From Actinomycetes bacterium (GTDB taxonomy: Bacteria > Actinomycetota > Thermoleophilia > Solirubrobacterales > JACPNS01), in the NCBI GenBank assembly GCA_023404495.1, contig JAEYBE010000033.1:72032-136031 (forward strand): a stretch of DNA of 64,000 bases. Reading direction: 5' to 3'. Numbering within the stretch: the first letter of the stretch is position 1; the number at the start of each line of letters is the position of its first letter. The notes beneath the pieces are model-generated. The model was given only the letters and a program-made list of their open reading frames with translations. It made no database searches and was not told the origin of the DNA. A program made the translations under genes and the position numbers. Positions 1,676-53,698 of the stretch are shown here, one piece after another.

Positions 1676-3286
1676 GTGCACGGTGTCAGCACAGTATCTC
1701 TCGGCGGCCTGTCCGCTCGCGCATGGAAGCGCATCGGACTCGTCGCCGTGGTGCTGACCGCACTCCTCGCCGTCGTTCCAGAAGCTCGCGCCGCGTCCGA
1801 CACCGTCGCGGCCAGCCAGCAGCTGATCGTCGGCTTTGAGAACGGAACGAGTCGCTCGGAATCTGCCGCGATCATCAATGACACCGATGTATCGATCGCA
1901 CAGCGGCTTCCGGGCGGCGCGCTCCTGGTCGATGTCGACCCGGGCGAGAATCCCGCAGGCGTCGCCGACCAGCTCGAGTCCGATGGCGCCGTGCGCTACG
2001 CCACGCCCAACTTCGTGGTGCGCGCTTCCGAGGTCGCCAGCGACCCGCTGATCGCCAACGGCAGCATGTGGAACCTGCTGCGCGTGCACGCCCCTGCCGC
2101 GTGGGCGGCGACAACCGGGAGCGGCGCGGTGGTCGCGGTGCTCGACGCCGGCGTCAACCTGACCAACCCGGACATCGCCCCGAGCCTCTGGACCAACCCC
2201 GAGGAAGTTGCCGGCAATGGCCTCGACGACGACAACGACGGATTCGTCGACGACGTCAACGGCGCGGACTGGATCGACCGCGACGGCGCCCCGACCGACA
2301 CCAACGGTCACGGCACGCACGTCGCCGGGACGATTGCCGCGGCCGCAGGAAACGGATTTGGCGGCGCCGGCGTTGCTCCCGGCGCCAAGCTGATGCCGCT
2401 GCGCTTTCTCGACTCGCGCGGCTCGGGCACCGTTGCCGACGCGATCTCCGCGATTCAGTTCGCGATCAACCACCGGGTTGATGTGATCAACGCCAGCTGG
2501 GGCGGCCCCGACTACTCCCCCGCCCTGCGCGACGCATTCGCGCGCGCCGGCGCCGCAGGGATCACCGTTGTCGCCGCCGCCGGCAACGACGGCGTCTCAA
2601 ACGATTCTTCGCCGACCTACCCGGCAGCCTTCAGCCTGCCGAACCTGATCGCCGTCGCCGCCAGCGACCGCCGCGACCAGCTCGCAGCGTTCTCAAACTA
2701 CGGCCGCGGCGTCGCGGTCGCCGCACCGGGCGTCGGAATACTCAGCACCGAGGGCGCCGGCATCGGAACGATGAGCGGCACTTCGATGGCAGCACCCCAC
2801 GTCGCAGGCATCGCGGCGCTCGTGCACTCCTTCAACGAGTATCTCCCCCCGACCAGCGTGATCGCCGCGATCAGCGCAGGCTCAATCAAGAACCCCGCAC
2901 TCACGGGCCGGGTCAGCAGCGGTGGCGTCGCCGATGCCGCAGGTGCACTCCAGGCTGTCGGCGCGGAGGTTGCCGACATCGATCGCGGCACTGCCCCCGG
3001 GTCGTTCAAGCTCCGCAAGCCGGGCAAGCGCGTGCGCATCAAGGGCCGCCGCGGGTACGTGCGCTTTGCCTGGTCGAAGTCGCGTGACTCGGACCTGGTC
3101 GGCTACGACGTCGTCGTCAACGGCAAGGTGCGCGCGCAGGTTCGCTCGACGCACGCCCGCATCAAGGTGCCGGCAGGCAGGCTTACCTGGAAGGTCGTCG
3201 CTGTGGACGCCCAGGGGAACAGCACGACCGCATCGCGCTCGTCAAAGAGCAACGGAAGAATTGCCGTGCTTCGCAAGAAGCGGTAG
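1676..3286 (+). CDS. secreted subtilisin-like serine protease (peptidase S8)
   Basis: Subtilase motifs VAVLDAGV (Asp), HGTHVAGT (His), AAAGNDG (Asn) and [11 protein letters not shown] (Ser). It has a signal-like segment [21 protein letters not shown] and a basic Ig/FN3-like C-terminal tail. The ORF opens at 1502, which would overlap tilS, so GTG 1676 was chosen and the start is uncertain. Confidence 0.85.
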
Positions 3287-3339
3287 TTGCGGCTTCGGGC
3301 GGGCGAATTCGGGGTAAACACTGGCGTTATGCTTCCGCC

Positions 3340-4152
3340 GTGCGCCAATGCCTGAAATTCGCTTTGGCCGTCGGCGCCGTGGCGGCTGCGGCGTGCGGTG
3401 CCTCGACTCCCCCCGTTGCCGCAGCGGCCTCACCTCCGACGTTATCCGGAATATCCGGCTCGCTCCAACCGAGGACGCTGAAGTTTCGTCCGACCAAACG
3501 CACACCTATTCAAATGACTCTCCGGTCCCAAGAGAGCTTCGTCGCTGGCACGCCGACACGCGTAACTCTCAAGGTGAAGTTCGTCGACGTCCCGATGTGG
3601 GTCCGCACCCGCGGGAAAGTGAGAAAGATTCCAGCGTTCAAGCTCTTCAGTCGCATGCACGTCCGGCCGTCGCTTATCGCGATGGCCGCATCGTGTCGGC
3701 CGCTGGGTGGAAAACTTGAGGTCTACGATCCGAAATGCGCGCCGGAAGGCAATGGAAAAGCTCTCGGCTCCAAGACAATAGACCTCCCGCCCGTTGGTGA
3801 CAAGTTCACACGTATTCGGTTCGACATCGGAACTAGCTATGCATTCGACATGACTTTTGATCGCAATGCTAGAAAGGCGAAGTGGCTCCGAAGGAACCAG
3901 TCGGTAACCTGGCGAGCGCTGGTGACGTTCCCGAGATGCCTCGCACCTGACGCCTCGGGTCGGTACTCGGACCTTCCGAGAATCGCCACCTCTCCCTGCC
4001 AGCCAGGCGACCTTTCCGTAGGTACCACCTACACGCTTGCTGGAAAGACTTGGCGAGGCTCGGGATCAGAAGCGTTCAGAACATTTGGGAGCAACAAGCG
4101 TGGCAGCGTGACGATCTTCCCAGCGGGATGGCCCGCGAATTCCGTATCGTGA
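3340..4152 (+). CDS. hypothetical exported protein (possible lipoprotein)
   Basis: 270-aa ORF with an N-terminal signal-like segment MRQCLKFALAVGAVAAAACGAS containing a Cys after an Ala run. I recognise no family motif. GC is lower than the flanks. Confidence 0.55.
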   Translation: MRQCLKFALAVGAVAAAACGASTPPVAAAASPPTLSGISGSLQPRTLKFRPTKRTPIQMTLRSQESFVAGTPTRVTLKVKFVDVPMWVRTRGKVRKIPAFKLFSRMHVRPSLIAMAASCRPLGGKLEVYDPKCAPEGNGKALGSKTIDLPPVGDKFTRIRFDIGTSYAFDMTFDRNARKAKWLRRNQSVTWRALVTFPRCLAPDASGRYSDLPRIATSPCQPGDLSVGTTYTLAGKTWRGSGSEAFRTFGSNKRGSVTIFPAGWPANSVS

Positions 4153-4170
4153 GACTGGTCGGCGCCGGAT

Positions 4171-4241
4171 TCAGCTCTCGCGCGTCTCGACGCGGAAGAG
4201 TTCGATCGAGTCGTCAAAGCCCTTCAGGCGCACGTTGCCGA
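4171..4241 (-). pseudogene. orphan 3'-terminal fragment (last ~22 codons) of a MerR-HTH/class III cyclase paralog
   Basis: It translates to GNVRLKGFDDSIELFRVETRES*, against IGNVRLKGFDDSVELFRVETRD* at the end of the intact cyclase gene (6588..7886). Similarity stops abruptly at 4241/4242 and nothing upstream resembles a cyclase. Confidence 0.75.
4180..4241. repeat. 62-bp direct repeat, copy A (cyclase 3' end)
   Basis: 59/62 identical to 6594..6655 in the same orientation, 2414 bp apart. Confidence 0.9.
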
Positions 4242-4360
4242 GGCAACGGCCATATCGCGGCCCCGAACATCGAGCGTGACCGCTCGGTTTCCTCAGCTGC
4301 GAGTACCAACGCTGGCTCATCGACACGCTTGACAGAAAGTTCCAGTCTCGATACCGTGTT

Positions 4361-5233
4361 TTGATCGCAATCCTGCCGAAAGGGGCATACGTGCGCGTCT
4401 TGCTCGGCGCATCGCTATTCGTGATCGCCCTCGTGGGTGGCACGGCCACCGAAGCCTCCGCTCGGTCTGGCTCGCCTGAAGCCCTACAAGCTTCAGTAGC
4501 GTCAACCGCTCAATCCGGCAAAGTTCTGTTCATTGCTTCGACAGCGACTTTCGCCCCGCCGAAGGGCAAGTCGCACGCAAAGACCTGCAAGGGCAGGGTT
4601 TCGATGAAGGTTTCGCTTGGGGGCCGGAGGCAATCTGTTGCGCACCCTAAACTGAAGACTGTCGGACAGGCGTGCGCCGCGACGGGACGTCTGGCGGTCC
4701 CGGCGAATACCGTCGGCAAGTCGAAGGTGTTCTTCTACTCCTTCGGCGGGAATAAGGCCGTCAAGAAGTGGAACCTTTCACCTCGGTTGCGCGTCACGCC
4801 GCCGTTGAAAACTGGCGAAATGTTCTCGCTGACCCCAGCAAAGTGGTCCTTCTTCTCCGGACATACGAGCCTGCAGAAGCCACAGAACTGGCAGTTCGAG
4901 AGCGACGCGGGCGGATTCGTTCGCTACACGAACCGCGGCGGCACCCTTCGGTTCGATTGCACGGACGCTGTGAAGATCTCGATCCTCTGGGTCGGAGATC
5001 GATTGATCACCAGTTCCCATTCCGCTGGCTCGGCTGTTGTCAAATTTGAAGGTCGCGAGTCCGACGACGTCGGTGCCCACTTTTTGGCGGTGACCGGAGA
5101 AGCGCGGTTTCTGACCAGCGCGTTTGCCGTTGGATCACTGAAATTCGAAGGCGACGTTCAGTCGCCGGACGGGAGTTGGCACAAATGTTCTACCGCCTCA
5201 ATGCCGGTCAGCGTCGTGCGGATTCTGTTTTGA
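4361..5233 (+). CDS. hypothetical exported protein
   Basis: 290-aa ORF (TTG start, with an alternative GTG near 4391). It has the hydrophobic N-terminal segment VRVLLGASLFVIALVGGTATEASA and no motif I recognise. GC is about 52-57%. Confidence 0.55.
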   Translation: MIAILPKGAYVRVLLGASLFVIALVGGTATEASARSGSPEALQASVASTAQSGKVLFIASTATFAPPKGKSHAKTCKGRVSMKVSLGGRRQSVAHPKLKTVGQACAATGRLAVPANTVGKSKVFFYSFGGNKAVKKWNLSPRLRVTPPLKTGEMFSLTPAKWSFFSGHTSLQKPQNWQFESDAGGFVRYTNRGGTLRFDCTDAVKISILWVGDRLITSSHSAGSAVVKFEGRESDDVGAHFLAVTGEARFLTSAFAVGSLKFEGDVQSPDGSWHKCSTASMPVSVVRILF

Positions 5234-5235
5234 TT

Positions 5236-6525
5236 TTGCGCGCAACGACAACCTCGCGGAAAGTCATCGTCCGATGTTTGCTCCCAGCTGTGCTCGTGAT
5301 CGTCGCGACGGGGTGGATCGCGGCTGCGCCAGCCGCGGCAGCGGACGCGAAGGTGAGCGGATTCAAGTCGAAAAAGATCGTCCTCGGCAAGTCGATCGCC
5401 GGTATCAGCATTCCGGGTAAGACACGTCAGCTCAAGTCCTCATTCGGCCAAGGCAAGCAGTGTCGAAAGACGAAGCAGACCATTTCGGTCCTGATGGGTC
5501 CGCAAAAGCTCCTTGAATGCGTCGCGCCGCTGCGCAGCGATCGACCGTTCGTCCTCGCGTCTGGACACGTAGGGAAGAGGGGCGATCTAATCGGCGTGGT
5601 CAGTGCATGTGGGTACTCCTCCAAAGCGATTGACCACCTCAACTGCAGGGGCGGATTAGGCGAAATGACGATAGATCCCGGCGGGTACAAACTCGGTTAT
5701 CCATTGAGCGCGATGGGACAATTGAGCAACTCATTTTTAGATGCGACGCTCGAGCCGATCAAGTCGACTCCCGCCCAGGGCGCCAATCAGGTCGCGTGGC
5801 CTACGAAGGTCCTTGCACGGCAGTATCGGCACAACATGACCCAGCTGTTCTTTGCTCCAACCAACGGCGAACTCATGTCGGTTGTGATGCGCTGGGTCCC
5901 CTGGCGAGATTTTAGGCCGAGCTCAAACGCGATTGTCTTGGGCGAAAGGATGGCCGGGCTGAAACTGGGCGACTCACTGGCCGAGATGAAGAAGCGAATC
6001 AGCTCGAAGGAGTCGTTCGGCCGCTTTTCGTTCTGCGGCCGGTACTCCGGCAGTCGTCGTTGGTGCAGCATAAAGAACACTGAGCTCGGTCCGGTTTTCG
6101 ACGCTGTAACCCACAAGGGCCGGGTCGTCTACCTGCGGTCCGAGTGCCAATCGCTGAAACTCGCAGGCTACGCCTTGCTGCTGGGGGTAAAGAATGTCGA
6201 GAACACCGGTACGTCCATGCCGTGCGCAGAGGACAAAGTCAACATGCCCATCGTGCCGATCTTCGCGAAGCTCGGACAATCGCTTCCCCAGGTCGAGGCG
6301 AAGCTCGCCGGTTTTACCAAGCTCGACTCTCAGCTGAGCGTCCCGGAAGGGATTGGTTCAAGCCTTCACCCAACGTACCTCGATGACTTTTTCAATGTCA
6401 GCCTGATCTTTGACTCGAACCAAAGCGAGACCATCTTCTTCCGCGACAGCGCGACCTCGCGGACCATCCTGCAGTTCAGTTCCTCAGGGCGCCTGTACAA
6501 GGTCACGATCGGCGCGCTCAAATGA
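5236..6525 (+). CDS. hypothetical exported protein with internal G-x-x-L-G-x-S repeats
   Basis: The ORF opens at 5176, overlapping the upstream gene. TTG 5236 directly follows the upstream stop and precedes the signal-like segment VIVRCLLPAVLVIVATGWIAAAPAAAADA. No family is recognised. Confidence 0.55.
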   Translation: MRATTTSRKVIVRCLLPAVLVIVATGWIAAAPAAAADAKVSGFKSKKIVLGKSIAGISIPGKTRQLKSSFGQGKQCRKTKQTISVLMGPQKLLECVAPLRSDRPFVLASGHVGKRGDLIGVVSACGYSSKAIDHLNCRGGLGEMTIDPGGYKLGYPLSAMGQLSNSFLDATLEPIKSTPAQGANQVAWPTKVLARQYRHNMTQLFFAPTNGELMSVVMRWVPWRDFRPSSNAIVLGERMAGLKLGDSLAEMKKRISSKESFGRFSFCGRYSGSRRWCSIKNTELGPVFDAVTHKGRVVYLRSECQSLKLAGYALLLGVKNVENTGTSMPCAEDKVNMPIVPIFAKLGQSLPQVEAKLAGFTKLDSQLSVPEGIGSSLHPTYLDDFFNVSLIFDSNQSETIFFRDSATSRTILQFSSSGRLYKVTIGALK

Positions 6526-33101: not shown

Positions 33102-35969
<2,868 letters not shown>

Positions 35970-36013: not shown

Positions 36014-36379
36014 TCAGGCGGTCAGGCCCGGCGGCTGCGCACCCATCGCCTTTGCGGTGCTGCGCTGGGCGGTGCGCCGCGCGCGGCGCTTGGCGGCCAG
36101 CTTGTCGACCTGACGGGCGAGCTCGTCGGACACCTCGTGCATGGCGTGCTTGAGATCGAATGAGCGGTCAGAGGCGCGCAGCGTCTTGCCCTTCACGTGC
36201 AGCGTCGCATCGACGCTGAAGTGATCCGGAATCGCCGGGTTGTGGTCGTCCTTGAACTCAAGCTCCAACCGCGCGAGGTCGGAGACCATCTTGTCGACCT
36301 TCTCGAAGCGGCGCGCCGCGTACGCGCGCAGTTCTTCGGTGATTGCGATCCCGTTGCGTGACCTGATCTCAATCTGCAT
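36014..36379 (-). CDS. hpf: ribosome hibernation promoting factor / RaiA family (short form)
   Basis: MQIEIRSRNGIAITEELRAYAARRFEKV... fits the S30AE family and the gene has the conserved position next to secA. ATG 36379 was chosen inside the ORF that extends to 36436. Confidence 0.8.
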   Translation of the reverse strand: MQIEIRSRNGIAITEELRAYAARRFEKVDKMVSDLARLELEFKDDHNPAIPDHFSVDATLHVKGKTLRASDRSFDLKHAMHEVSDELARQVDKLAAKRRARRTAQRSTAKAMGAQPPGLTA

Positions 36380-36531
36380 GTCCAACCAACTCCCAATCTC
36401 GTGTTGCAATGACTTCGGAAGCTGAACGGACTGCACTCGCGCGACGCCTGACCGACCGGCTGCGGAGCTGCGGCGCTGGGGGGCGCCGCCGTCCGGTCAG
36501 ACTTGCCGGGGCGGTGGCTCCACCCTCGCCC

Positions 36532-37259: not shown

Positions 37260-37559
37260 ATGAGCCGCGAAGAAATCGTCACAGCGACCGGGATCGTGAT
37301 GTTCTTCTGGGACTCCGGCGACGAGGAGCGGCATCTGCTCGTCAACATCGAGCCGGATGATCACCACAAGCCCGACGCGTTCGAGCTGACCGGTGACCTA
37401 CGCGACTCGGCGATCGAGAAGATCGCCGAAGGCGCGCGCGTCGAGGTCGACTATCTGGTCGAACACCACGAGGTCGTCGATCCGGACGGCGCGACGACAC
37501 TCGACTCGAGCCGGCCGAACATCGTCGAGGTTCGGATCGACCTGACTAGCGGAGCTTGA
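37260..37559 (+). CDS. hypothetical small acidic protein
   Basis: 99 aa from ATG 37260 inside the longer ORF 37074..37559. No motif is recognised. It converges on and overlaps the zincin gene by 14 nt. Confidence 0.4.
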   Translation: MSREEIVTATGIVMFFWDSGDEERHLLVNIEPDDHHKPDAFELTGDLRDSAIEKIAEGARVEVDYLVEHHEVVDPDGATTLDSSRPNIVEVRIDLTSGA

Positions 37560-38598
37560 TTTCGACCTTCGCGACGCCGGTCTTGCCCTTGGCGAAAATT
37601 CCGATGTCCCAAAGCCCTGGCGCGATGAACGTCGTCAGCGAATCACTGCGGCCGCGCTTGGTCGAGCGGTCCCAGACCTTGTTGGACTTCGCGGGGAAGA
37701 TGAAGATGTCGAAGTCGCGCCCCTTGGCGCCCTTGACGGTCACCTTGGTGAGACTGAAGAACGACGTGGAGATGCGCTTCCAATAGACCTTCTTGCGCTT
37801 GATCTTCTTCGAGAAGTTCTTGGTCGAGACAAGCAACTTGTTGTCAATGTCGAACTTCATCGCCTTGAGCTGGTCGGCGTTGGGCTCCTTGGCGCTTGAA
37901 AGCTGCCAACCGGTGATGCCGTTGAGCACGACGAAGTCTTCGGCGAAGAGCTCGGGGAGCAGGTGCTCCCAGTCCGTGCCGGAGCAGAAGAACCTGTCCG
38001 CGTCCGTCGTGTTGGAGGCGGTCACACGGGTGAAGAACCAATCGCGCGTGCCGTCGGTCGAGATCGTGCAGCCGTTGCCGAAGCCGAACGCACGAAGCTG
38101 GGCGAGATTCGCGATCTGGTTGTCGACGTGGTGGCCGTACTCGTGGACCAGCGAGTGCAGCCAGTCAGTGTCGTTGGTGCCAAACCAAAGTTCGCCATAT
38201 CCGTTGGCCATCGGTCGATAGCAAGCGATCGCCTGCGTGTCGCCGCATGTCGAGTCCATCTCGCTGAGCGGGATCGCGTGGACCGTGAGCTTCGAGATCT
38301 CGGACTTGTGGTAAATCGAGTTCAGCGCGGCGGCGGCCGGATCAAGATCAAAGCCGGGGACGGTCGTATCAATCGTGAACTGACGACCTGAGCCGTCGGT
38401 GTAGGTCGCGCTGGCGACTGCCTTTGGAGCGGCCGCAATGCGCGCTCCCGCAGGCAGAATCGCATCCTTGACCTCGCGCTTGGCCTCGACCTTCGTGAGG
38501 TCGATCTTGCCGGCGGGCTCGGCGGCGGTTGCCGGCGGCGCGACGAACGCCGCCGCGCAGAGCGCGGCGGCGAATGTCAGGCCAGGCTTCAGGCGCAA
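37546..38598 (-). CDS. secreted putative zinc metalloprotease (HExxH) with a basic beta-sandwich (PPC-like) C-terminus
   Basis: 350 aa with a TTG start and the signal peptide MRLKPGLTFAAALCAAAFVAPPATAAEP. It carries the zincin motif LVHEYGHHV and a C-terminal KKIKRKKVYWKR...FDIFIFPAK...GVAKVEIKL. GC is low (42% in the sample 37801..37860). Confidence 0.65.
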   Translation of the reverse strand: MRLKPGLTFAAALCAAAFVAPPATAAEPAGKIDLTKVEAKREVKDAILPAGARIAAAPKAVASATYTDGSGRQFTIDTTVPGFDLDPAAAALNSIYHKSEISKLTVHAIPLSEMDSTCGDTQAIACYRPMANGYGELWFGTNDTDWLHSLVHEYGHHVDNQIANLAQLRAFGFGNGCTISTDGTRDWFFTRVTASNTTDADRFFCSGTDWEHLLPELFAEDFVVLNGITGWQLSSAKEPNADQLKAMKFDIDNKLLVSTKNFSKKIKRKKVYWKRISTSFFSLTKVTVKGAKGRDFDIFIFPAKSNKVWDRSTKRGRSDSLTTFIAPGLWDIGIFAKGKTGVAKVEIKLR

Positions 38599-39092
38599 GG
38601 AGGCACCCCGTTGGCGATCAGCTCTTCGTCTGTTGCGAGATTGAATGAGAACTGATCGGAGTTCTTCAGCAGGGCGCCGGTCGTCGGTGAGCGGAATGTT
38701 CCCTTGATCTTGAAGTACACCGTCGTACCGGAGGCAGCGGTGATCGACTTCGAGGTCTTCTTCCAGCCGTTCTTCTTTGTGAGCTTCACCGATCCGGAGG
38801 CGAAAGAAACTCCGTTCTGGTCGCGCACCGAGTAGCTGAACTTGACGCTCTTTGGGTACGGCGAGTTCTTGCGCGTGAACTTCGCACCGAACTTGACGGC
38901 GAAGCGCACTTGCCCGGCGGCGGGCCTGCAGGCGTCGACGAACTTGTAGGTCGGGGTGACGTAGAGCTTGACGGTCTTCGCCGAAGCAGCTGAGGCAACC
39001 GAGAGGCTGGCTGCGATCGCCACGACGAGTGTGGCCAGGAGGATCAGTTTCTTGCGCACGAGTGAGCCTTTCACGAGAAGGTGTTCACTCAA
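38589..39092 (-). CDS. small secreted protein, paralog B (Cys-bracketed)
   Basis: 167 aa with a signal peptide ending ASAASA. It resembles the 39136 gene product (LTKKNGWKKTSKSITAASG vs LKKSTGYKKRSKRFTVPAG, and LATDEELIANGVPPCA vs LAPTREELDQLGVVYC). Its stop overlaps the zincin start by 10 nt. Confidence 0.6.
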   Translation of the reverse strand: MSEHLLVKGSLVRKKLILLATLVVAIAASLSVASAASAKTVKLYVTPTYKFVDACRPAAGQVRFAVKFGAKFTRKNSPYPKSVKFSYSVRDQNGVSFASGSVKLTKKNGWKKTSKSITAASGTTVYFKIKGTFRSPTTGALLKNSDQFSFNLATDEELIANGVPPCA

Positions 39093-39135
39093 TTATCGCC
39101 TACGGCGCGCGAAAGTTGCGGTCGCGTCCAGCTGA

Positions 39136-39582
39136 CTAGCAATAAACCACGCCGAGCTGGTCGAGTTCTTCTCGAGTCGGTGCCAGGTCGGTGGACGATT
39201 TACCGAATTGGCGCGTTCGGCCGCCCACGCGGTATGTGAAGTTGACTCGCATCGAATACTCGTGGCCAGCCGGGACCGTGAAGCGCTTGGACCGCTTCTT
39301 GTAGCCGGTCGATTTCTTCAGGTTGATGACGCGAGAGGCGATCGTCCATCCAGTCGTCTTGTCGATGATCTGGTACGCGGCCCGGATCCGCTTGGGCGGC
39401 GCAATTCCGTTGTAATCCACTTTCCCATCAGCGACGAAGCGGTAGCTGATGCGGTCCTCGTCGACCCTGCAGCCGTCGACCTCGCCGTACTGCACGAATA
39501 CTTTGATCGACCAGGCCTGCGCAGCGGGCACAGGCGCCAGCAGGACTGCGAGCGAAGCGAGCAAAACAATTTTCTTGAGCAC
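39136..39582 (-). CDS. small secreted protein, paralog A (Cys-bracketed)
   Basis: 148 aa with the signal peptide MLKKIVLLASLAVLLAPVPAAQA. One Cys lies near the mature N-terminus and one is the last residue. Confidence 0.6.
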   Translation of the reverse strand: MLKKIVLLASLAVLLAPVPAAQAWSIKVFVQYGEVDGCRVDEDRISYRFVADGKVDYNGIAPPKRIRAAYQIIDKTTGWTIASRVINLKKSTGYKKRSKRFTVPAGHEYSMRVNFTYRVGGRTRQFGKSSTDLAPTREELDQLGVVYC

Positions 39583-52676: not shown

Positions 52677-53573
52677 CTAGACGCTCTCGGGCGAGAACGT
52701 GTCGCACTGCGCCGGCTCGCCGGTCTCGTATCCGACCTTGAACCATTCGGCGCGCTGCTGGCTGGTTCCGTGCGTGAACGATTCGGGGCGCACTCCCTGA
52801 CCGGAGTTGCGCTGGAGCGTGTCGTCGCCGACCGACTCGGCCGCGCCGAGCGCTTCTTCCAGGTCTCCATCCTCGAGGTCGCCCTGCTGGTACACGCGGT
52901 GAGCCCAGATGCCGGCGTAGCAATCGGCCTGCAGTTCCATGCGAACCGAGAGCTCGTTGGCCTGGCCCGGGTCCTCGCGTTGCGCAGCACGGACCTGCTC
53001 TTCAGTTCCCAACTGCTGCTGGACGTGGTGCCCAAGCTCATGGGCGATCACGTACGCCCAAGCCAGATCGCCGGAGGCGCCGAGCTGCTCCTGCATCAGC
53101 TTGTAGAAGCCGAGGTCGATGTACACGCGCTGGTCGGCCGGGCAGTAGAACGGTCCGACCGCGCTGCTCGCCGAGCCGCAACCGCCGGTTGAGACGCCGC
53201 GGCGGTAGATCACCATCTTCGCCTTGTCGTACGGCTCGCCGGACTGCTGGAAGGCCTGCTGCCAGCCCTGCTGCGCCGTCACAAAGACGTAGGACGAGAA
53301 GTCCTTGAAGTCTTTCTCGGGATCCTGATCTGACGGAATGCCTTTGGCGTTCTGCGAGCTGACGGCCGTGTCGGTGGGGAACGCCTGGCCGATGTCAAAG
53401 CCCGACCCTTCGCCGCCAAGCAGCTGCATCCCGATCACGATGATCACGACCAGCAAGCCGATTCCGCCGCCGGCCTTGCCGACCGGGATCCCGCCCATGC
53501 TCGGCCCGCCACCGGACGAGGAGCCACGGGCGTCGATTACATCGCCGTCATCGTCAACCTTCCGCCAGCGCAT
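52677..53573 (-). CDS. YpfJ-like neutral zinc metallopeptidase
   Basis: N-terminal DVIDARGSSSGGG, a TM segment and HELGHHVQ. The architecture is typical of the YpfJ family. Confidence 0.8.
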   Translation of the reverse strand: MRWRKVDDDGDVIDARGSSSGGGPSMGGIPVGKAGGGIGLLVVIIVIGMQLLGGEGSGFDIGQAFPTDTAVSSQNAKGIPSDQDPEKDFKDFSSYVFVTAQQGWQQAFQQSGEPYDKAKMVIYRRGVSTGGCGSASSAVGPFYCPADQRVYIDLGFYKLMQEQLGASGDLAWAYVIAHELGHHVQQQLGTEEQVRAAQREDPGQANELSVRMELQADCYAGIWAHRVYQQGDLEDGDLEEALGAAESVGDDTLQRNSGQGVRPESFTHGTSQQRAEWFKVGYETGEPAQCDTFSPESV

Positions 53574-53698
53574 GCGGCGATCCTAGCCACGCAAAAGCAC
53601 GCAAATACCGGCCAACCTTTGGCACCTGGTGCCAAAGGTTGATCGCAAATAGCGAGGTTTTCGTGGCGCGGTGCGGAGGACGCGCTTGCGGCTGGGGC

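Follow-up and report, generated by a model that had tools for sequence, protein, structure and literature searches.

The window, a stretch of 64,000 nt of contig JAEYBE010000033.1 from an Actinomycetes bacterium (Thermoleophilia, Solirubrobacterales), contains three co-directional open reading frames (ORFs) on the minus strand between positions 37546 and 39582, referred to here as small1, small2 and zincin. Their features are listed in Table 1. Together they are a native, lineage-specific exoprotein operon, which combines a gluzincin-like zincin with cysteine-bracketed small proteins, and both of these are new families.

A preliminary description of this DNA, made from the sequence alone, had pictured three tightly packed same-strand genes, and both the coordinates and the overlap of small2 with zincin are borne out. 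The overlap implies translational coupling, and in relatives the two genes at this junction overlap by up to 10 nt or are separated by up to 25 nt. The gap of 43 nt given earlier between small1 and small2 is correct for the TTG start of small2 (39092), and is 76 nt for the GTG start (39059). The GTG codon is the more likely start as judged from the sequence, because it is preceded by AAAGG at a distance of 8 nt and the called length of most homologs is 155-157 aa.

All three proteins start with a Sec-type signal peptide, in which a basic n-region and a hydrophobic core are followed by AQA, ASA or ATA. The N-termini are MLKKIVLLASLAVLLAPVPAAQA, MRKKLILLATLVVAIAASLSVASAASA and MRLKPGLTFAAALCAAAFVAPPATA. 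The signal peptides were judged by reading the sequence directly, and agree with those noted previously on all three proteins, as does the description of the trio as a secreted module. No lipobox or twin-arginine motif was seen in any trio protein by the same reading. Scans for promoters, terminators and Rfam families over 36-41 kb found nothing.

In comparison with L002, the closest relative (NTP-transferase 97% identical), the ratio of non-synonymous to synonymous substitution rates (dN/dS) is 0.22 for small1, 0.04 for small2 and 0.09 for zincin, with values of 0.03-0.09 for housekeeping neighbours. The three genes are real and under purifying selection.

Table 1. Features of the three-gene operon and associated loci. 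Positions are those of the window unless a locus is named; pI, isoelectric point; PPC, pre-peptidase C-terminal.
Feature	Position	Strand	Details
small1	39582-39136	(-)	148 aa; GTG start; GGGGGA ribosome-binding site 5′ of start
small1 signal peptide	39582-39514	(-)	residues 1-23; mature chain 125 aa, pI 9.8
small1 conserved Cys	C38, 39471-39469; C148 (C-terminal), 39141-39139	(-)	family alignment
small2	39092-38589 (TTG start) or 39059-38589 (GTG start)	(-)	167 aa or 156 aa; small1 paralog
small2 signal peptide	39059-38979	(-)	mature chain 129 aa, pI 10.2
small2 conserved Cys	38930-38928; 38597-38595 (penultimate residue)	(-)	family alignment
small2/zincin overlap	38589-38598	(-)	10 nt; small2 TGA stop 38591-38589, zincin TTG start 38598-38596
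zincin	38598-37546	(-)	350 aa; TTG start; secreted HExxH metallopeptidase-like protein
zincin signal peptide	38598-38524	(-)	residues 1-25, ATA before AEP; hydrophobic N-terminal segment family-wide
zincin catalytic domain	38523-37834	(-)	residues 26-255; acidic, pI 4.9
HEYGHH	38145-38128	(-)	part of invariant HEYGHHxDN (H152-N160); modelled helix 146-159
ELFAEDF	37953-37933	(-)	E216, E220 and D221 invariant; modelled helix 214-225
zincin C-terminal domain	37833-37546	(-)	residues 256-350 and stop; basic PPC-like beta-sandwich
convergent gene	37260-37559	(+)	99 aa; acidic, pI 4.3; no signal peptide; between zincin and comF
zincin-less small-gene slots	L114 4001-5009; L116 4001-4468; L119 253-1322		paralog-type order differs from window

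The cysteine-bracketed small proteins

The small1 and small2 proteins align over their full length with 29% identity (BLASTP E = 2e-12), which confirms the paralogy proposed previously. The two sequence blocks said to be shared between them are approximate only; small1 reads LKKSTGYKKRSK, and the C-terminal block requires a one-residue gap in small2. The placement of a cysteine near both ends of the mature chain is real, and is a trait of the family. Each of ~55 members has exactly two conserved cysteines, located ~15 residues into the mature chain and 0-8 residues from the C-terminus, and every full-length member couples this pair with a signal peptide.

A word-indexed search returned only 11 relatives, and a profile run exhaustively against 1.84 billion cluster representatives gave 48 matches at E <=1e-3. 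Of the 39 matches at E <=1e-10, 38 have a single domain and a length of 119-167 aa; the few long matches look like low-complexity sequence. The family thus comprises ~40 representatives, without curated relatives. Neither small protein matches Pfam, NCBIfam or the sequences of the Protein Data Bank (PDB), and a search of the PDB sequences with the family profile gave nothing significant. An identical small1 protein, P0064, is present on public contigs. The family is very diverse, dividing into 14 groups at ~38% identity. small1 and small2 fall into different groups, each with its own orthologs elsewhere, and the duplication that produced them is therefore old.

The small proteins may adopt a beta-rich fold, as suggested by alternating hydrophobic and polar blocks in the sequence together with several sub-threshold Pfam matches to beta-sandwich domains; a Pfam scan of 16 divergent members gave scattered matches only, all with E >0.04, of which some were to such domains. 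The two cysteines would be expected to form an intramolecular disulfide bond after export. Actinomycetota oxidise exported proteins. The possibility that the small proteins are detached copies of the C-terminal domain of the zincin was considered and rejected, as profile-profile comparison aligned the signal peptides only.

The small1 gene has diverged unusually between the window and L002. Its product is 66% identical to that encoded at L002 5122-5571, with a synonymous divergence (dS) of 1.36, and the flanking genes are 91-97% identical with dS of 0.39-0.63. Divergence so far above that of the flanking genes suggests replacement of the small1 allele through recombination with a more distant lineage, and not just rapid evolution. 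Positive selection on small1 was also considered; its dN/dS relative to L002 (whose zincin is 91% identical) indicates none overall.

The zincin

Searches with the zincin found 54 homologs. Those with a taxonomic name all derive from metagenome-assembled genomes of Thermoleophilia, Solirubrobacterales or Thermoleophilaceae, and the remainder come from unnamed metagenomes. None of the 54 carries a Pfam domain, and the zincin as query matched no peptidase family in Pfam or NCBIfam. The best sub-threshold Pfam matches among 34 homologs were DUF4932 (E = 0.016), Peptidase_M10 (E = 0.044) and Reprolysin_5 (E = 0.25), and the one DUF4932 score shown was 11.6 bits against a cut-off of 28.7. Searches of PDB sequences with the zincin or with its profile gave nothing significant, and a full-text literature search for HEYGHH returned no relevant paper.

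The HEYGHH sequence of this secreted protein, noted from the outset, is invariant in an alignment of 34 homologs, and in AlphaFold2 models its HExxH lies on an alpha-helix. It is predicted to provide two zinc ligands and the catalytic glutamate. The downstream ELFAEDF is predicted to be the glutamate helix of the ExxxE/D type that contributes the third ligand, by analogy with thermolysin-type gluzincins. In the same alignment C118 and C126 of the catalytic domain are invariant, and C177 and C205 nearly so.

The full-length zincin was modelled with a mean predicted local distance difference test score (pLDDT) of 88.6 and a predicted template modelling score (pTM) of 0.84. Foldseek searches with the whole model gave high template modelling (TM) scores for the C-terminal domain only, and for that reason the catalytic domain was modelled separately (residues 26-255; pLDDT 90.9, pTM 0.91). 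Its 50 top-ranked neighbours in the PDB belong without exception to gluzincin families (M34, M1 and M9). Anthrax lethal factor ranks first (E = 8e-3, probability 0.96, TM 0.44), and none reaches E <=1e-3. Beside lethal factor the matches are M1 aminopeptidases and Vibrio M9 collagenases, with sequence identities of 10-19%, and a library of viral structures gave equally weak zincin-type matches. The structure prediction that the preliminary description had proposed as a check thus yields a zincin-like model, with gluzincins as its neighbours throughout, every one of them weak. In the model the protein appears to have a fold of the gluzincin kind, together with the matching pair of motifs, far from every solved or curated family. 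We infer that it binds zinc and is catalytically active.

The segment immediately following the signal peptide (residues 26-47; 38472-38523) is modelled with a block pLDDT of 96-97, and V43 and D45 within it are nearly invariant, with conservation that reaches into distant clades. It could be a short pro-segment that lies in the active-site cleft, conferring latency of the aspartate-switch type.

The C-terminal 95 residues are strongly basic (pI 11.0), and form an eight-stranded beta-sandwich from residue 258 in the AlphaFold2 model, as the preliminary description had anticipated; the chain ends in KLR. Foldseek matched this domain to the jelly roll of Tk-SP (E = 4e-7) and also to GOLD domains, and comparison with the PPC and collagen-binding domains of collagenases gave target TM scores of 0.68 (5sv5) and 0.75 (1nqj). 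By sequence the relationship is faint. Pfam PPC (PF04151) matches 8 of 34 members, always sub-threshold (best 18 bits, E = 0.005, against a gathering score of 25.9), and a PDB profile search gave one weak match, between the C-termini of the zincin and Tk-SP (E = 0.07).

Gene order, composition and origin of the locus

The gene order around the operon is conserved at 12 distinct loci, with zincins that are 53-91% identical (the window; L002/L003/L006; L001; L005; L007-L010; L108-L111). It runs from sugar-nucleotide genes ending in the NTP-transferase, through one or two small genes and zincin, to a convergent gene (~97 aa), a comF-like gene and hpf. secA comes next where the contig reaches, and at three loci two inserted genes of ~490 aa follow hpf. 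Each of the 12 loci of this zincin clade has a small gene immediately 5′ of zincin, in the same orientation. Among GTDB species representatives, the one nearest to the window is an uncultured member of the Thermoleophilaceae. There are two small genes in the window, L002, L008 and L111, and one at the remaining zincin loci. The paralog adjacent to zincin is of the small2 type in the window and of another type in at least eight other loci. With L002 excluded, identity to the window is 83-86% for NTP-transferase, 72-93% for hpf and 61-82% for the convergent gene, compared with 53-61% for zincin and 24-41% for the small proteins.

When the slot was approached from relatives of the small proteins, three distinct places without zincin came to light, with two small genes at L114/L115, one at L116/L117 and two at L118/L119. 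The slot is therefore conserved in 15 related loci, of which 12 have zincin and three do not. No six-frame fragment of the three zincin-less slots matches the zincin profile at E <=1; these loci, from samples SRR26372211, SRR13076524 and SRR22840552, lie on short contigs, and the absence applies to the slot. At L114 the small2-type gene is the one farther from the expected position of zincin, and the slot has the behaviour of a small gene array that varies between loci.

The wider zincin superfamily, at 26-39% identity, adds another 16 loci from genomes and 147 or more relatives from metagenomes, from which 80 loci were kept; the metagenome scan with the zincin returned distant clades only. 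These clades sit in quite different gene contexts, and no small-family gene was found anywhere in their loci (~95 in number, ~70 of which have enough upstream sequence to tell). The co-occurrence of zincin and small genes, which the preliminary description had put forward as a check, thus holds throughout the zincin clade of the window (12/12 loci), but does not extend to the three loci that have small genes without zincin, nor to the distant zincins that have no small partner.

Some of the distant loci have features of their own. In L004 (5132-6755) and L018 (~4300-5880) two metagenome-assembled genomes, a zincin of a distant clade (28-33% identity) follows a pair of short ORFs that lack signal peptides and are called at 84 and 91 aa in L004; in L004 the downstream genes are a convergent aspS and then hisS. 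This context is conserved and differs from that of the window. In L011 (~3150-4550) the ORF located 5′ of a 39%-identical zincin homolog reads by eye like an extracytoplasmic function (ECF) sigma factor (...EDAEDLVQDTYARVL...), and it is followed by a possible anti-sigma ORF, also judged by eye only.

The trio had been described as a low-GC, acquired module. The three 60-nt samples of GC content that accompanied this description are numerically right (41.7, 56.7 and 55%), but are unrepresentative of the genes, for which GC is 59.5% (small1), 58.9% (small2) and 62.0% (zincin), or 60.7% for the whole trio. The window mean is 64.1%, with a standard deviation of 1.9% over 2-kb windows, which places the trio in the lowest 4%. 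GC at the third codon position (GC3) is 77, 80 and 86% for small1, small2 and zincin respectively. Among the neighbours secA has 61.1% GC and a GC3 of 81%, and six neighbouring genes span 61-69% GC and 75-84% GC3. Since GC3 equals that of the neighbours, the deficit resides at codon positions 1 and 2, where it stems from a Lys-rich composition, and the low-GC label is not supported.

A recent acquisition of the trio as a foreign island would be in keeping with gene GC 3-5 points under the window mean and with the single 60-nt stretch at 42%. Against it stand the native GC3, the lack of tRNA genes and flanking repeats at the trio, and the lack of mobility genes among the Pfam-annotated genes of the slot. 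The slot is moreover kept in related Thermoleophilia, at the 12 zincin loci and with small genes at the three zincin-less ones, and all the homologs with a named taxon are Thermoleophilia. Recent acquisition is thus highly improbable, and the evidence all but excludes a foreign origin. Even relatives with zincins of only 53-61% identity have these genes in this slot, which points to vertical inheritance of the operon within one Thermoleophilia lineage. There is a lesson in method here, in that short GC samples hinted at a foreign origin, where GC by codon position and synteny show a native locus.

The operon was said to lie between comF and a sugar-nucleotide operon; this overlooked the 99-aa convergent gene located between zincin and comF. 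The gene overlaps the 3′ end of zincin by 14 nt and has no match in Pfam or NCBIfam. A counterpart is present at the same place in every inspected related locus that reaches there, whether zincin is present or not, with 61-88% identity to the window copy across the seven loci compared and a dN/dS of 0.15. It is a real, uncharacterised gene. The two ~490-aa genes that follow hpf (L005 8765-11766, L108 7807-10715 and L109 7796-10752) have no Pfam match either. In L005 secA comes after the pair, and in L108 and L109 the last gene, reached before any secA, has no Pfam match; the pair is missing from the window, where hpf (36014-36436) directly adjoins secA (33102-35969). Elsewhere in the window (52677-53582, minus strand) is a second, unrelated HExxH protein of 301 aa, with the motif HELGH. 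This is a clear member of PF04228 (E = 5e-102), a family of putative neutral zinc metallopeptidases.

The small proteins in relation to the zincin, and comparison with known systems

Our tentative preference, held with less than even confidence, is that the small proteins bind and restrain the zincin, by analogy with the potempins discussed below. The disulfide bond would form after Sec export, pinning the C-terminal tail to the body of the beta-rich domain, and the basic small protein would then bind the acidic catalytic domain of the zincin translated from its own mRNA. This could keep the zincin latent, or protect the envelope of the producing cell, up to the release of the enzyme. The basic PPC-like tail would hold the zincin on an anionic surface or substrate, and the second small paralog may be a diverged spare with altered specificity. 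A more specific form of the proposal is possible and more doubtful. The small proteins would be a new family of metallopeptidase inhibitors whose target is a new gluzincin family confined to Thermoleophilia, the two making up a self-protection pair in a monoderm that is analogous to the potempin system and yet unrelated to it; the active site would be offered either the C-terminal tail or a conserved basic loop (L-K-K-x-x-G-Y/W-K), displayed by the terminal disulfide.

Several observations favour restraint of the zincin by the small proteins. The small genes are upstream and tightly coupled at every locus of the zincin clade (12/12). The dependence is one-sided, since the zincin of this clade never occurs without a small gene and small genes can stand alone. 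The charges are complementary, with a pI of ~10 for the small proteins and 4.9 for the catalytic domain. Distances between zincins correlate with those between the adjacent small proteins in partial Mantel tests with NTP-transferase as control (r 0.46-0.56, p ~0.001-0.002), and the control comparison of zincin with the convergent neighbour gave r ~0. All three proteins have signal peptides and both families have conserved cysteine pairs, as would be the case for exported proteins. In Actinobacteria, small secreted beta-proteins with disulfide bonds often act as enzyme inhibitors, as do SSI, SMPI and tendamistat.

The upstream, coupled position and the constant presence of a small gene beside zincin would also suit an intermolecular chaperone or foldase, acting as a pro-domain in trans in the folding of the zincin after export. 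This is very unlikely. Zincins of distant clades share the catalytic core and have no such partner, small genes are kept and constrained where zincin is absent, and across the same loci the small proteins diverge far more rapidly (30-41% identity) than the zincin (53-61%).

Other observations weigh against a role of the small proteins as inhibitors of the zincin. One or two intact small genes occupy the same slot at the three loci without a trace of zincin. In these loci the dN/dS of small genes is 0.34-0.42, compared with 0.16-0.26 for neighbouring genes of the same pair, and is ~2-2.6 times that of NTP-transferase in the zincin-less pair; the corresponding factors where zincin is present are 1.3 and 7.5. 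Relaxed constraint on the zincin-less small genes was considered and rejected: their raw dN/dS is higher but so is that of their neighbours, and there is no clear relaxation. These small genes are no less constrained relative to their neighbours, and their products must therefore have some role without an adjacent zincin. In addition, the paralog type that adjoins zincin differs between lineages, and distant zincin clades have no small partner of any kind. Because the loci all share their synteny by descent, the 12/12 co-occurrence represents few independent events. The partial Mantel test is known to err on the liberal side, and a correlation between two proteins that both evolve fast can arise trivially.

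A possible, if somewhat doubtful, alternative makes the small proteins the autonomous products of the slot. They would be basic, disulfide-stapled proteins located on the anionic cell wall or another surface, and the zincin would be an accessory that joined one clade, where it processes them, turns them over or works on the same surface, to which its PPC-like tail also binds. The genes at the three zincin-less loci are in accord with this, since they are intact with signal peptide and both cysteines and have the dN/dS values given above. So too is the variation in copy number and paralog type of the array within a fixed slot, as is the strong basicity (pI 10-11) common to the small proteins and the C-terminal domain of the zincin. 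That the zincin never occurs without a small gene would also fit an enzyme that needs its substrate. However, genes that are tightly coupled in translation, with the small one upstream, more typically encode binding partners than an enzyme and its substrate. The sequences show no obvious site of cleavage or signal for maturation, and Pfam scans together with reading of the sequences gave no wall-anchoring motif (LPXTG, lipobox, Pfam SLH or LysM). The contigs of the zincin-less loci are short, moreover, and a zincin may sit elsewhere in those genomes.

It is also conceivable, although unlikely, that the genes are mere neighbours, encoding co-transcribed exoproteins of unrelated function whose adjacency reflects the shared ancestry of the locus. 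One ancestral arrangement lies behind all the loci, giving few independent events, zincin has been lost while small genes were kept, and other zincin clades are found in quite different contexts. Yet the junction has remained close, never wider than 25 nt and in places an overlap, although the proteins have diverged by 40-70%, the divergence of zincin and small proteins is correlated beyond that of their neighbours, and no locus of this zincin clade has zincin alone.

Thermoleophilia are abundant in soil and freshwater and almost uncultured, and their secreted proteins are essentially uncharted. The present locus adds two families that no curated library covers, one gluzincin-like with at least 54 sequence clusters and well over 100 metagenomic relatives, the other the cysteine-bracketed small proteins with ~40 representatives. 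If the small proteins are inhibitors, they would supply a scaffold that is new among inhibitors and, this time outside Bacteroidota, a second case of an operon with an upstream guard. If they are not, the pair still offers a compact, testable three-gene system in which all the proteins can be expressed.

The preliminary description knew of no described family with this arrangement. That stands insofar as no curated family covers any of the three proteins, but the potempin operons of Tannerella forsythia are analogous. In these a small secreted inhibitor is encoded directly upstream of its target, a KLIKK-peptidase, and is co-transcribed with it (PMC9890683). Potempins are exported proteins of 98-132 residues that guard T. 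forsythia from the KLIKK-peptidases, several of which are zinc metallopeptidases (PMC9890683). The trio resembles this system in having the gene for a small exported protein immediately upstream of that for a secreted peptidase on the same strand (12/12 loci of the clade), and in having paralogous small proteins. There are clear differences. Potempins are outer-membrane lipoproteins of diderm Bacteroidota with an OB-fold or an eight-stranded beta-barrel, and have the lipobox cysteine at position +1. The trio proteins have no lipobox and come from Actinomycetota; the signal peptides of the small proteins end in AQA or ASA, and ~15 residues of mature chain precede the first cysteine. The small proteins of the trio have no detected sequence similarity to potempins. 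Unlike potempin genes, the small genes also occur without a peptidase, and inhibition is here a proposal made by analogy. The C-terminal domain of KLIKK type, which serves type IX secretion, is absent from the zincin, which has a PPC-like end with a KLR terminus and an actinobacterial host.

In the models the zincin shares with the gluzincins (MEROPS clan MA(E); lethal factor M34, M1 and Vibrio M9) an HExxH helix that follows a beta-sheet, and has downstream an invariant acidic helix of the putative ExxxE/D type. Particular to it are HEYGHHxDN, a spacing of ~59 residues to the glutamate helix and the two conserved cysteine pairs. The fold matches are weak (TM 0.44 or lower), and no curated peptidase model in Pfam or NCBIfam reaches threshold. 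Its ~95-residue C-terminal beta-sandwich is like those of the Tk-SP subtilase and the clostridial collagenases ColG and ColH (target TM 0.68-0.75), with weak sequence matches. Relative to other proteases with PPC or jelly-roll domains, it scores below the gathering threshold of Pfam PPC (<=18 bits against 25.9) and is unusually basic (pI 11).

The inhibitors of serralysin (Inh, and AprI of AprA) and the Streptomyces inhibitors SSI and SMPI are likewise small, exported, mostly disulfide-bonded and beta-rich protease inhibitors, and Inh and AprI are encoded in the operon of the protease. The small proteins of the trio have no sequence similarity to the Inh, SSI or SMPI families in Pfam, and differ from them in target family and in the order of the genes. 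Both secreted zincins with a PPC-type tail and operons in which a small protein is encoded upstream of a protease are known already. What is new is that both protein families lie outside the curated libraries, and that the zincin is only remotely similar in fold to the gluzincins that have been solved.

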